From a virus (lineage: Duplodnaviria; Caudoviricetes): DNA of 64,000 bases. Location: IMG/VR virus record IMGVR_UViG_3300035180_001680; one strand, given 5' to 3'. The notes below the pieces were generated by a model. The model saw only the letters and a list, made by a program, of their open reading frames with translations. It made no database searches and had not been told where the DNA came from. Shown here piece after piece: positions 2,674 to 58,167 of this stretch (within the stretch, counting starts at the first letter, position 1; every line of letters begins with the position of its first letter). Made by a program: the position numbers and the translations under genes.

Positions 2674-3318
2674 TTACCAGTTGGATGTTAACATAAAATG
2701 TTTATCTGTTGTCAAACCCAGTTCTTCAGCAGTTCTTGCGATTGGTGTCCCACAAGAATCAGAACCACACAATTTTCCAAAATCATTTTTGCTAAAAATC
2801 AACAATTCGTTGTGGTCTATCATTTTATTAAAAACAAAAGAAAATAACTGCTTGTCATACTTTGAACCAAGTCTTTTTTCAACATACTTATTAAAGAGTT
2901 GACTTAGATGGGGGTTTATCTTGTTTGTGTCATATGAATATACAGAATGGAGTCCAATTATACCATAAGATATTCTATCTGTTCCGGCTAAAAACATAAT
3001 TACGCAGGAACTTTCACAAAACCCAGAAACAATATGAGCTCTCGGTCTTGCTTCAAATAATGGAAGCAACTCTAAAGTCGTTCCAGCATCTCCTCCAGTT
3101 ACACCATCAAACACAACTGTATCTATTTGATTTGTCAGATATTTTGGCATTTCGGTTAAATCTTTTTTCGTGATATCACCCGACAATATCAGTCTCTGAT
3201 TTACAATGGAATAACTAAGAGCGTAAACATGTGTTGAAACAACCAGCATCATTAAAAACATAAAATTTTTGATCATGTTAATTTTTCCAATAGGTGGTAT
3301 ATTTATTCGAAAACGCAA
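2674..3318 (-). CDS. exported hypothetical protein, possible ClpP/crotonase-like fold
   Basis: signal-peptide-like N-terminus; GGD...CESSCVIMFLAG...IGLH pattern. Confidence 0.45.
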   Translation of the reverse strand: MRFRINIPPIGKINMIKNFMFLMMLVVSTHVYALSYSIVNQRLILSGDITKKDLTEMPKYLTNQIDTVVFDGVTGGDAGTTLELLPLFEARPRAHIVSGFCESSCVIMFLAGTDRISYGIIGLHSVYSYDTNKINPHLSQLFNKYVEKRLGSKYDKQLFSFVFNKMIDHNELLIFSKNDFGKLCGSDSCGTPIARTAEELGLTTDKHFMLTSNW

Positions 3319-7228: not shown

Positions 7229-8071
7229 TCATTTTATATCATTCAGAATTTGACAAATTGCAAAATTTCCTGATGGACTTACCATATAACTCAACACATC
7301 AACTGCGTTTGCTGTTGGTGTTAACGTTGGAGCAATACCACCAGCAAACTTCCAGTATGAATTAAAGGTTAAAGTTCTCGGAGTTGTTCCATTTTGAATT
7401 ACGATTATTCCACCCTGACCAGCACTAGAATTAACAGGAGAGTTGAGTGTTGAATTTTCTGTCATAACAACGGAGAAGTTGTTTCCTGAATCCATATCTA
7501 GACCGATAATTCCTCCAGAAGAAAACAAATAAACATATTGTCCACGTTGGCCTGCTGTCCATATATTAGATTGAGACGTTATCAAACTACTTGGATTTGC
7601 CCAATATTGATGTCCACCTGAATCAGATATTATAACTGTGTTTGGAGGACTTGTTGTATTTGTTCCAAAATTAATACCAGTAGTAACATTCAATTTATTA
7701 GTGCTTATAATTCCTGAATTGGTTATATTAGTAGATGTTATATTATCAGAAGTTAAAGTTCCATTAACAATAGTTGAAGAGTTAATTGTATCAACGGTTA
7801 ATGTATAAACCGTTGAAGAGAAAGGTAAAGTGTCAATCTCTAATGTGCTATATTGAGAAGAATCAATTGAATATGAGACTGCTGAAGGAGTTACAAAGGT
7901 TGTAGGTCCCGATGCTACAGCTGTTAATAACCACTCTTCACCCGATATTAATGAATTTATGTTATTGGAAAGTAGTGTATCTACACTTGTTTCAATAAAA
8001 TCATCTGGTAAAATGTGAAAAGAGCAAAAATTAAAAGATCCTACTATTGTACTTGTTGTTGGTGTTGGCAC
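7229..8071 (-). CDS. tail-fibre-related structural protein
   Basis: T/S-rich; C-terminal WKFAGGIAPTLTPTANAVDVLSY. Confidence 0.6.
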   Translation of the reverse strand: MPTPTTSTIVGSFNFCSFHILPDDFIETSVDTLLSNNINSLISGEEWLLTAVASGPTTFVTPSAVSYSIDSSQYSTLEIDTLPFSSTVYTLTVDTINSSTIVNGTLTSDNITSTNITNSGIISTNKLNVTTGINFGTNTTSPPNTVIISDSGGHQYWANPSSLITSQSNIWTAGQRGQYVYLFSSGGIIGLDMDSGNNFSVVMTENSTLNSPVNSSAGQGGIIVIQNGTTPRTLTFNSYWKFAGGIAPTLTPTANAVDVLSYMVSPSGNFAICQILNDIK

Positions 8072-17289: not shown

Positions 17290-18375
17290 GTCTGGCCCAT
17301 TGACACGATTTATCAAGAGCGTGTACTCTCTTTTTTCAAAGTGACAGTTCACAAGTATGCTTTAAACAATCTGCATTACCAACTCTCTAACCCCTTTTAC
17401 AAGGGAGGTTCTACACAGATTGTTTAAAGCAGACACCTCAATCGAGGCATTTACTTTGTATAAGGTTGAGATTAAACCTATACTATTGATACCTTCGAGA
17501 CATTATCTCATCACCTGCTACAGCTAGAGTTCTTCTCTTATCCACATAATCAGCTTTCGCACAACTATGTCTATCAACATGACTGCATTTTTTAAGTGGT
17601 TGCTTTTCCACCAACATGTAAAGCTACTCGATTATCTGTCTACCGCCAACCTTGCGAGCTGTACAAGAGCGCTAACTCTCTGCGTGCGACTTTCTTTCAA
17701 CATCCTCGACCTTGCGAGTTTTGGACGCCTTCATTACCTTGCGGCTGAAGGATTAAGCCATTTTCACTTTACACTGGAAACGTCTTTGCGTTTTATGTAA
17801 TATAATCCAAATTTATATGGGCTGTTAACCCTAACATTGTTAAACCTACCAAGAAGTGCGTTTCCAGTGGATTTCATACCTTTTGAGTATAAAAATACCA
17901 CACTCCTCATGTTTTTCATCTGCCGACTACTCAACCAGTTTTCAGGAATCGTGACACCCTATTACAGGTACCAAAACCCCCTCAACTTGCACAACAGCCC
18001 TTACTTGCGGGTTCGGACCACTGTACTACCCTTTACCTTTTGAGATGGCTAGTTTGTGTAGGCGTGAGGTCGGCACAACCCGTTACTCTCCAAATGCCCA
18101 AGTTCCCTGCAGAGCAGGCTTGTAAACATTCGTTCTTTCCACACCCCTAACTTCCCTCATATGACTACCGTTGGCGATAATCAGCTCCTTTCGGAGTAGG
18201 TCAGGCTTGCTTGTTTGTACCCCTTACAGGGCGCGGTAGTTGTAGGACCTACCGCTTTCACAACATCGCTGTTGGTTACTTTGCACAAGCGCGTAATTCT
18301 TTATCTTTTAAATTGTTTCTGATGAAACGTTCTGAATTCACAGAACTAATTAAAAGAGTGACTTTCTTAATACTA
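17290..18375 (-). ncRNA. large ornate ncRNA, GOLLD-like candidate
   Basis: ~1 kb with no credible CDS; many GCAA/GAAA-capped helices; long inverted repeats; own TTGACT-17-TAAAGT promoter; next to tRNAs. Confidence 0.55.
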
Positions 18376-18907: not shown

Positions 18908-18981
18908 GGTGCCCAATGTCGGAATCGAACCGACGGTCAAGTGTTTTAGAAGCACCTGCTTTACCATTAAGCCAATTGAGC
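18908..18981 (-). tRNA. amber suppressor tRNA(CTA)
   Basis: GCTCAAT-TG-GCTT..AAGC-A-GGTGC-TT-CTA-AA-ACACT-TGACC-GTCGG-TTCGATT-CCGAC-ATTGGGC-A-CC. Confidence 0.75.
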
Positions 18982-26718: not shown

Positions 26719-26805
26719 GGTCCGAGTGACCGGATTCGAACCGGTACGACCTTTCGGCCGGCAGGGTTTAAGCCTGCTGCATCTACCTAATTACACCACA
26801 CTCGT
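26719..26805 (-). tRNA. tRNA-Leu(TAA)
   Basis: GCAGG-CTTAAAC-CCTGC; long variable arm. Confidence 0.8.
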
Positions 26806-55618: not shown

Positions 55619-55687
55619 CATACACATTTTATAGCAATCTATTTATAAAGTCAACAAAAAGTTTTGGTCTCTATATCCGGTAATCTT

Positions 55688-55722
55688 GTGAACTACCCAA
55701 TTGTTCAATGGGGGTAGTTCAC
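55688..55722. mobile_element. palindromic IS-end remnant
   Basis: GTGAACTACCC-AATTGTTCAATGG-GGGTAGTTCAC, same ends as 28486-28523 and the TnpB right end. Confidence 0.65.
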
Positions 55723-55723
55723 C

Positions 55724-55828
55724 TTAGATCATATTAATGGAATAAATGATGATCATAGATTAGAGAACTTGAGAACAGTTTGTCCTAAATGTGATTCATT
55801 ATTACCAACTTTTTGTTGTAAAAACTAA
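55724..55828 (+). pseudogene. HNH endonuclease C-terminal remnant
   Basis: LDHINGINDDHRLENLRTVCPKCDSLLPTF*, with no 5-prime part. Confidence 0.7.
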
Positions 55829-55839
55829 AAGTTAAAAAA

Positions 55840-56159
55840 TGGTGCCCCGAGCCAGATTTGAACTGGCACGCTCGAAAGCGAGGGATTTTAAGCGGTTGTG
55901 TCTCGAAGTTTCCTTCAAGCCCGGACTATCTCTTTACCTTCAACATTATTTGGTCAGGTAATGGGCGTTCAAAGCTGGTTATTAAGAGGACTAAACCTCT
56001 CCAGTAGTCTCTACACCTTCAAGTGATGTATCACTTGCTTGGCTCGCGATTGCCATTTTAAAGGCTCTCCCGAATTAACCCATAGTTTACTCAAAGTTTC
56101 CAATTGAGGGGGACTAGCGTCATGCGATCCCTTGTGTCTACCAATTTCACCATCGGGGC
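55840..56159 (-). tRNA. tRNA-Leu(TAA) interrupted by a group I intron
   Basis: 5-prime exon GCCCCGATGGTGAAATTGGTAGACACAAGGGA; 3-prime exon CTTAAAATCCCTCGC...GGGGCACCA. Confidence 0.88.
55893..56127 (-). other. group I self-splicing intron (~235 nt, no ORF)
   Basis: core elements AATTCGGGAGAGCC (P), AATCGCGAGCCAAG (Q), GTAGAGACTA (R), AAGAGATAGTCC (S); P3 ATGGG/CCCAT; terminal G. Confidence 0.85.
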
Positions 56160-56275
56160 ATTAAATTATAAAAGAACAGTCACACCAAAAACATTTACTT
56201 CTGAGTCATTCTTCTAACTCCTTCTTTACTGGGAGACTATTATATATTAAGTATCCCATAAAGTCAACAAAAATT

Positions 56276-57159: not shown

Positions 57160-58167
57160 TTAACCTCTTCCGTATTTAAAAAGATATTCATTGCTGACAG
57201 CCTTCCAATGTTCTCGTCCATTAACTTGCTTGTATACTTCTCCTTCTCGGAGTTTACCAGTAAGTTTACTCGTTCCATCTGCCATTGACAACACATCTTG
57301 AACAGAAGTTTCAGGTGGAAACACATACTCTTCGTGAATTACAGGGACGTGCTTAAGTCCAAGGTCTTCACACAATTGACGCCGCTGGTTAGGGGAAAGA
57401 AAACATCCCAACTTAATGTCATATATCGCGAACACGTAGAAGTCTTGACCCTTCAACCCATAATGGTTACCCTGTATACCTTCTCCGATAATTTCACCCT
57501 GAATAATGATATCATCCAAGCCCGTTTCAATCAACCGCTGTTCGATGTTATACTTACGAGCTTGAGCCCACAAAGAGTTACCTTCAGTTTCTCTCAAGTT
57601 CAAGTTCCGAGAACATACGATGAACTCACCATCAATTCGACCGACAGACATCGAGCTACCCTCAAGCTTCTCAGTAACCTCATAAGTTAGTTGCTTCAAT
57701 TCTTCCCAGTTACTAGTGAGATTCTGAATTCGTTCTTCATCTGTCTTGGGAAATACAGATGGAAAAGCTCCCTTAACTACACCAGCCAGCTGAGCTGGGA
57801 TTGGAGGTTCGTACTTGACGATGCCAAGGAGGTCGGTGACATCTTCACCCTCATTGAACACCAACATGGATGTGGGGATGGGGAGAACAAGGCCCTGACT
57901 CAATTGCCCCCTCAATCGAACGGTGCGCAGACGTTCCCCAGAGATACCTTCGTATACAAAAGGAGTTTTATCACCTTTAGTCAGGAAAGGGGCAATGTCG
58001 TGTGGGATGAAGCTATCAACTTCACAGTATATTACAAGGTTACCAGGTTCAAATTCACCTTTTTTGACGACGACTTTCCATCCTCCAAGCAACGCAACTT
58101 CAATAGCGTCAGCATCAGGGATAGGTTGAATGTCATCGATTTTTCGAATAGTAGCAAGATGTCGCAT
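57160..58167 (-). CDS. RNA ligase, DRB0094-like family (N-terminal OB domain)
   Basis: IQPIPDADAIE, YCEVDSF, LRGQLSQGL, PKTDEERIQN, TEKLEGSS, REGEV. Confidence 0.9.
   Translation of the reverse strand: MRHLATIRKIDDIQPIPDADAIEVALLGGWKVVVKKGEFEPGNLVIYCEVDSFIPHDIAPFLTKGDKTPFVYEGISGERLRTVRLRGQLSQGLVLPIPTSMLVFNEGEDVTDLLGIVKYEPPIPAQLAGVVKGAFPSVFPKTDEERIQNLTSNWEELKQLTYEVTEKLEGSSMSVGRIDGEFIVCSRNLNLRETEGNSLWAQARKYNIEQRLIETGLDDIIIQGEIIGEGIQGNHYGLKGQDFYVFAIYDIKLGCFLSPNQRRQLCEDLGLKHVPVIHEEYVFPPETSVQDVLSMADGTSKLTGKLREGEVYKQVNGREHWKAVSNEYLFKYGRG

Follow-up and report, generated by a model that had tools for sequence, protein, structure and literature searches.

[quoted passage not shown] In a survey of 5292 bacterial tRNA introns, for which 21 tRNA/site classes are listed, 98.5% have a U as the last base of the 5' exon (position -1) and a G as the last base of the intron; the only real exception is a class with C at -1, and A at -1 was not reported (Williams 2020, bioRxiv 10.1101/2020.01.27.920355). 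[quoted passage not shown] For the Anabaena intron, the base at the splice site must be a pyrimidine, and swapping the U-G pair for G-U abolished activity (PMC12355055). A shifted cut has been described for BcISt1, a group B IStron of Bacillus cereus, where RT-PCR and sequencing of joined exons and circular introns placed the cut after the last G in AGGG/U (PMC4227781). The U that follows AGGG pairs with the guide G, yet it is the first base of the element, so that the cut precedes the U-G pair by one base (Tourasse, Stabell and Kolsto 2014, NAR; PMC4227781). The authors tie this shift to the loop that directly follows the U-G pair (PMC4227781).

The DNA analysed here, which we call the window, is a stretch of 64,000 nucleotides from a jumbo phage; it corresponds to the minus strand of part of a 178.8-kb IMG/VR virus record that stems from a metagenome assembly and is judged to be about half complete. 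The window contains at least 23 tRNA genes, an amber-suppressor-type tRNA with anticodon CUA (18908-18981, minus strand, labelled 'Pyl' by ARAGORN) and, about 1 kb from the latter, a full-length GOLLD RNA (17463-17908, minus strand, Rfam RF02032, 198.8 bits). The phage may read TAG as a sense codon. The gene of interest, at 56159-55840 on the minus strand, is a tRNA-Leu(UAA) with encoded CCA that is interrupted, as the original prediction had proposed, by a group I intron (Rfam RF00028, 61.5 bits). An RNA ligase gene (57160-58167, minus strand; Pfam RNA_ligase plus a PHA02142 OB-fold, E about 1e-30) is located about 1 kb upstream of the split gene and just upstream of the tRNA cluster, a position consistent with tRNA repair. 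Elsewhere in the window there is a second tRNA-Leu(UAA) gene (26719-26805, minus strand), which is intron-less, differs in sequence and has the loop CUUAAAC, so that the phage does not depend on the split gene alone for this tRNA.

The 5' exon (56128-56159, minus strand) covers positions 1-31 of the tRNA, as judged by direct reading, by the intron mode of ARAGORN and by conservation of the cloverleaf pairs. It is the 5' half of a type-II tRNA, with the acceptor strand GCCCCGA, the bases UG, a GUG/CAC D stem, A26 and the 5' strand of the anticodon stem, AGGGA (56132-56128). The 3' exon (55840-55892, minus strand), taken from direct reading and from the joined product given by ARAGORN, starts with the whole anticodon loop CUUAAAA and continues with the 3' strand of the stem (UCCCU), a variable arm capped by UUCG, a regular T arm, the 3' strand of the acceptor stem, the discriminator A and the encoded CCA, which ends at 55840. 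All four tRNA arms and the CCA are intact. The insertion site is 31/32, at the boundary between the 5' strand of the anticodon stem and the loop, which leaves the entire CUUAAAA in the 3' exon. This site is indeed unusual, as predicted. The accompanying placement of known tRNA-Leu(UAA) introns after position 34 is true of the classical type only; phage contigs that share the 5' half of this tRNA also have group I introns at 33/34 and 34/35, and one at 25/26 is present in another tRNA-Leu.

The difficulty at this locus concerns a single base, U56127, directly 3' of A31 on the minus strand. It can form a U-G pair with G56114 or a U-A pair with A56115, so that the pairing GGGAU/GUCCC with a terminal U-G is possible in the sequence, as had been claimed. 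The last base of the intron, the terminal or omega G (G55893), is directly followed by the complete CUUAAAA, again as described beforehand. If the textbook rules are applied, cutting after the U of the U-G pair and joining after the terminal G, U56127 counts as exon, the intron is 234 nt long (56126-55893) and the product has an 8-nt loop, AGGGA-UCUUAAAA-UCCCU. A normal 7-nt loop requires the cut to be after A31, with an intron of 235 nt (55893-56127, minus strand), and the intron mode of ARAGORN finds a tRNA-Leu(UAA) only when the intron is placed in this way. Exons joined after A31 make an 85-nt tRNA-Leu(UAA) that is accepted by the program, while exons joined after U56127 are reported as a tRNA with an odd-sized loop, not as a normal tRNA. 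The original prediction stated this paradox, and both ways out of it, correctly; its headline, however, leaned towards the 8-nt loop and a suppressor tRNA.

We favour the other way out, and put at around 0.7 the probability that the 235-nt intron (56127-55893) is cut after A31 to give a normal tRNA-Leu(UAA) from a working gene. The cut after A31 is preferred because the U is replaced in seven of the eleven copies of this intron, because intron-less alleles have only 7-nt loops and because, for the guide to match the joined exons, A31 has to be the last base of the 5' exon. On the same comparative grounds, the clade of introns to which this one belongs most likely works without a U-G pair at the splice site, at a tRNA position that has not been described in print.

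Relatives were collected by pattern scans of IMG/VR and of JGI metagenome contigs. Ten further contigs, nine from phages and one from a metagenome, have an orthologous intron at the same site (L014, L041, L135, L136+L141, L137, L139, L140, L142, L145 and L146; L136 and L141 are on one contig, the second continuing the first). Other matches to the patterns were dropped as chance hits: an intron-less tRNA-Leu (L012), an archaeal coding region (L015) and L133, L134, L138, L143, L144 and L147. The exact 24-mer of the 5' junction has no match in IMG/VR. Three of the ortholog phages have tmRNA genes of the permuted or two-piece type near large tRNA arrays (L140, 204-564, minus strand; L146, 11018-11285, plus strand; L137, 1952-2275, minus strand).

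All eleven copies have the same layout: the 5' exon ends with A31, a guide G-UCC(C/G) follows 13-16 bases further on, the intron ends with G and the 3' exon begins with CUUAAAA. No copy departs from the guide G, the terminal G or CUUAAAA; two search patterns fixed AAGGGA and GUCCCC, making the invariance of those bases partly a matter of ascertainment, while the base after A31 was always left free. This free base is U in the window, L041, L140 and L146 (4/11), A in L014, L139, L145 and L135 (4/11) and G in L137, L142 and L136+L141 (3/11); C occurs in none of the eleven, a count too weak to interpret. Where A31 is followed by A or G, as it is in seven copies, not a single U is found between the D arm and the guide, and the canonical U-G site is therefore absent from them. 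The tree of the eleven introns is poorly resolved, and the claim is confined to the presence of all three bases, U, A and G, within a set of introns that are about 85% identical. Among the 97 intron-less alleles in IMG/VR with the same 5' half, every anticodon loop has seven bases, with the sequence CUUAAAA in 82 and UUUAAAA in 15.

The internal guide of the window intron is AGUCCC (56110-56115, minus strand), of which UCCC (56113-56110) pairs with GGGA of the exon (56131-56128) in a P1 of four base pairs. In L145, the exon has ACGGA and the guide UCCG, a compensatory change that fixes the register of P1 with A31 paired to the guide U. As this change fits only an A31-U pair, a shifted register with an A-C wobble at A31 is ruled out. 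G56114, the first base of the guide GUCCC (56114-56110), and its 5' neighbour A56115 are the complements of C32 and U33 in the 3' exon, with which they would form P10. Across the copies, AG-UCCC is complementary to the joined exon sequence GGGA-CU, with the C32-G pair possible in all eleven and the U33-A pair in eight; in L041, the complementarity between guide and joined 3' exon extends to five pairs. If the 5' exon ended at the base after A31 instead, the 3' exon would be left without a P10 partner. The nucleotide that follows A31 covaries with the one 5' of the guide G, the two being U-A in four copies, G-C in three and A opposite A in the remaining four. Such a pattern fits an extension of P1 within the intron that begins with this pair and leaves the guide G unpaired.

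The ribozyme itself is well defined. The RF00028 match extends over 55902-56183, reaches 61.5 bits, above the gathering score of 50 (E = 3.5e-13), and is the only match to this family in the whole 178.8-kb record. The Rfam alignment puts P1 in the wrong place and runs no further than P9, and the splice sites cannot be taken from it; the helices of the intron were drawn by hand and then checked by covariation. On the minus strand, the P2 hairpin (56090-56108) has a GAAA-type loop and shows changes on both sides in all six of its counted pairs among the orthologs. The region from P3 to P7.1 (55961-56083), with covariation in its helices, is enclosed by P3 (56083-56078 with 55966-55961) and contains P4-P6a (56073-56015), the 5' strand of P7 (56009-56005) and a nested P7.1/P7.1a extension of 30 nt (56004-55975), between P7 and the 3' strand of P3. 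We take the P7.1 extension to be a feature of IA-type introns and not of the IC3 subgroup. P8 (55958-55937), J8/7 and the 3' strand of P7 (UAGUC, 55928-55924) follow within 55924-55958, as supported by covariation and by the Rfam alignment; P7 is formed by GACUA with UAGUC, and the P7/P7.1 stretch hardly varies in the wider family of introns. The P9 hairpin (55902-55919) is closed by a GAAA tetraloop, with changes on both sides in five of seven pairs, and a tail of nine nucleotides leads to the final G. The intron does not encode a protein of its own; the frames that overlap it are chance ORFs of 37-70 amino acids, none of which could be a transposase.

In the six complete intron copies compared, 96.9% of the 358 cells in 61 pairs are standard base pairs, and 34 of the 61 pairs show changes on both sides. 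None of 500 shuffles reached such a value, and controls in which the pairing was slid were 33-44% paired. The cloverleaf, compared in six orthologs, is 100% paired, with both-side changes in 10 of 24 pairs. The copies without U also keep a paired ribozyme and a paired tRNA through changes on both sides, and are therefore maintained as a folding ribozyme in a folding tRNA. Nine of the ten complete copies pass the Rfam gathering score, namely the window intron and eight orthologs (56-85 bits), L136+L141, in two loci, being left out of the scan. The window copy thus has a score above gathering, a covarying core from P3 to P9 and a terminal G, as expected of a group I intron. A U at -1 in a U-G wobble is possible in the window, but does not hold across the clade, where A, in an A-U pair, has to be at -1 for the tRNA to be regular.

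That the RNA is spliced, where exactly it is cut and what the unpaired G does are inferences, and the proposed sequence of events is as follows. GGGA of the anticodon stem and UCCC of the guide would form the 4-bp P1. Guanosine would attack 3' of A31, a residue in an ordinary A-U pair that adjoins the unpaired guide G, without a U-G wobble; U56127 would become the first base of the intron. The unpaired guide G may still serve the wobble receptor of the ribozyme. In the second step, the terminal G55893 would occupy the guanosine site, while C32 and U33 pair with the guide G and the neighbouring A as P10, stacked on P1. Ligation of A31 to C32 would then give the 7-nt loop CUUAAAA. In this mechanism, U56127 would be an intron base that allows a U-G pair by chance; it may go back to a canonical ancestor whose insertion site was after U32 of a tRNA with a UUUAAAA loop. 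We know of no tested example of a purine at -1 in a Watson-Crick pair.

The alternative that follows the textbook is a cut after U56127, opposite the guide G, and joining to C55892, with the 8-nt loop UCUUAAAA as the sole product or as a minor by-product. GGGAU/GUCCC with its U-G pair is a textbook P1 and the minimum-energy fold in the window and in L140, and a real U-G pair can be formed in the window and three relatives, in which part of the transcripts may be cut there. The guide G is at the same distance from P2 as the wobble G of a sister intron (L006, see below), and the U-1 rule is true of nearly all known introns. In seven of the eleven orthologs, though, the same cut would have to be made at an A-G or G-G opposition and would leave loops with a variable extra base, and none of the 97 intron-less alleles has an 8-nt loop. 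P10 is lost in this register, the product is not accepted as a normal tRNA by ARAGORN, and BcISt1, which does have a U-G pair, splices one base upstream of it. We therefore regard the canonical cut as unlikely. Suppressor tRNAs of the sufJ type, which cause +1 frameshifting, have an anticodon loop of eight nucleotides in which the additional base precedes the anticodon. A tRNA from the canonical cut would resemble them in having its extra base on the 5' side of the loop; if it is made, it would be a natural frameshift-suppressor tRNA produced by splicing.

It is similarly improbable that the gene is decaying or silenced, splicing being absent or too poor, with the phage relying on the tRNA-Leu(UAA) at 26719-26805 and the junction being the scar of a one-base slip. 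The presence of that second, intron-less gene in the same window is compatible with decay, as is the state of the neighbouring HNH endonuclease gene, of which only a remnant of 54 codons is left (55664-55828, plus strand; Pfam HNH_3 and HNH, E about 1e-3, below the curated cut-offs). The most divergent ortholog, L135 (2323-2625, plus strand), has lost P9, has an aberrant T loop (AGCAGAG) and scores below the Rfam gathering threshold; it may be a decaying copy. Against decay, the junction is kept in eleven contigs, with many compensatory changes in ribozyme and tRNA, nine of ten complete copies score above the gathering threshold, and the CCA and the four tRNA arms are intact in the window.

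The HNH remnant is oriented tail to tail with the split tRNA-Leu gene and has an open frame only with read-through of TAG; it may be what is left of a free-standing homing endonuclease. An intact HNH_3 gene is present directly downstream of the L135 copy (2715-3272), and ORFs next to the L041 and L137 copies have weak, sub-threshold matches to nuclease-associated motifs. From these neighbours, mobility of the intron by means of free-standing homing endonucleases is plausible.

A variant of the 8-nt reading extends it to the whole clade: the ribozyme would measure the cut from the guide G, whatever the base opposite, and all eleven copies would release a tRNA-Leu with the 8-nt loop N-CUUAAAA. 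We consider this a little less probable than the canonical cut and the decaying gene. If true, jumbo phages that also carry suppressor tRNAs would have a natural, splicing-made tRNA for +1 frameshifting or quadruplet reading.

Another way to obtain a 7-nt loop is to end the 5' exon at U56127, taken as U32, and to start the 3' exon at U33, with an intron ending in GC and the loop UUUAAAA. Such loops are present in 15% of the intron-less alleles, the product is accepted by ARAGORN, and this arrangement may be the ancestral state before a one-base shift. As it stands, a C at the end of the intron would have to occupy the guanosine site in all eleven copies, and position 32 would have to be A or G in seven, to which a non-wobble pair at the cut site is added in those same seven. 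Involving two breaks of the rules instead of one, it was rejected as very improbable. A one-base assembly or sequencing error at the junction, which had been named beforehand as a possible refutation and is conceivable in a metagenome assembly, is excluded by the same layout in ten independent contigs from other samples and by the position of the junction outside any homopolymer.

Should the cut after A31 be correct, the 5' splice site of a group I intron can be set by the geometry of P1 and an unpaired guide G alone. Current pipelines would then miss such introns or map them incorrectly, and the tRNA sets of phages would be under-counted. It would also ease a design constraint for engineered group I ribozymes, for example those for scarless RNA circularisation (PMC12355055).

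Among known introns, the classical Leu.3Ug intron of cyanobacteria and plastids is found in the same tRNA with the same anticodon. Like the window intron, it forms P1 with the 5' strand of the anticodon stem, has a terminal G, lacks an ORF and is of similar size. It is inserted at 34/35, between U34 and A35, with a U34-G wobble, whereas the window intron is at 31/32. Leu.3Ug belongs to the IC3 subgroup, which has no P7.1 extension; the nested 30-nt P7.1/P7.1a places the window intron outside it. Sequence similarity to the classical Leu intron was not detectable: blastn of phage records found only the shared core of introns from crAss-like phages. The crAss-like matches were in stretches without a tRNA match, and the same search also returned tRNA 3' halves at prophage att sites. 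The Leu.3Cg introns of Proteobacteria (Williams 2020, bioRxiv 10.1101/2020.01.27.920355) resemble our clade in being a sizeable natural class in tRNA-Leu without U at -1, the splice site being putative. They differ in that they have C at -1, in a C-G pair with the guide G, and are inserted at 34/35, while in the window clade the -1 base would be A, paired with U, and the guide G would be unpaired.

True 34/35 introns exist in the same phage tRNA type (L048, L051 and L087), and they look different from the 31/32 intron; others are inserted at 33/34 (L091 and L110). For all five, the usual rules give exact 7-nt loops. In the same tRNA-Leu type, L106 (about 7397-7560, plus strand) and L121 (1-150, plus strand) have a 55-nt insertion after CUU of the anticodon loop. 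Being much too short for a group I intron, this insertion may be a protein-spliced mini-intron.

Sister introns, which share the core and the P7.1/P7.1a extension with the window intron, are found in tRNA-Leu at 25/26 (L006), in tRNA-Asn at 35/36 (L013), in a tRNA(CAU) at 36/37 (L007), in a cyanophage psbA gene (L009) and in crAss-like phages (L002 and L003). Unlike in the window, the 5' exon ends with U, and the intron with G, in the four whose junctions were mapped (L006, L013, L007 and L009). This U pairs with the guide G in L006, L013 and L009 and with A in L007; a U paired with A is likewise present in a second intron of L137, at 34/35 of a tRNA-Lys. When the exons of the four are joined, the three tRNAs are regular according to ARAGORN and the psbA reading frame of L009 is restored. 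L006 (8114-8390, minus strand) interrupts a phage tRNA-Leu(UAA) outside the anticodon loop, with P1 GACAU/GUGUC, a terminal G and a clean tRNA-Leu product. The tRNA(CAU) of L007 (411-1393, plus strand) is split by an intron of 772 nt with a gene for an HNH endonuclease; upstream, the 5' half of the tRNA is present a second time, and downstream there is a further piece resembling a 3' half, an arrangement that could be nested, duplicated or the scar of homing. L004 (6326-6672, plus strand) has matching acceptor halves, a sister intron and about 50 extra bases between the D arm and P1. A consistent mature tRNA could not be derived from it and it was not used as evidence; its intron may end in A rather than G. 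Since the usual rules hold in the sister introns and in the other introns of the same tRNA, the anomaly is specific to the 31/32 clade.

The IStrons are alike in ribozyme type, the window intron being IA-like and of the phage type. As in BcISt1, the 5' exon would end in a purine, AGGG/U in BcISt1 and AGGGA/U in the window. In both, the base opposite the guide G would be intronic, as established by sequencing in BcISt1 and suggested by comparison here, and the pair would be followed by a loop, not by a continuous helix. IStrons are of class IA2, with P7.1 and P7.2 side by side, have a transposon of the IS607 or IS605 type as their 3' part and are found in many host genes; the window intron, on the other hand, has its two helices nested, is 235 nt long, has no ORF and is located at one tRNA site. 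IStrons also keep the U and its pair with the guide G, while in the 31/32 clade the base may be U, A or G. The clade would thus go one step beyond the BcISt1 precedent, in that the U itself appears to be dispensable.
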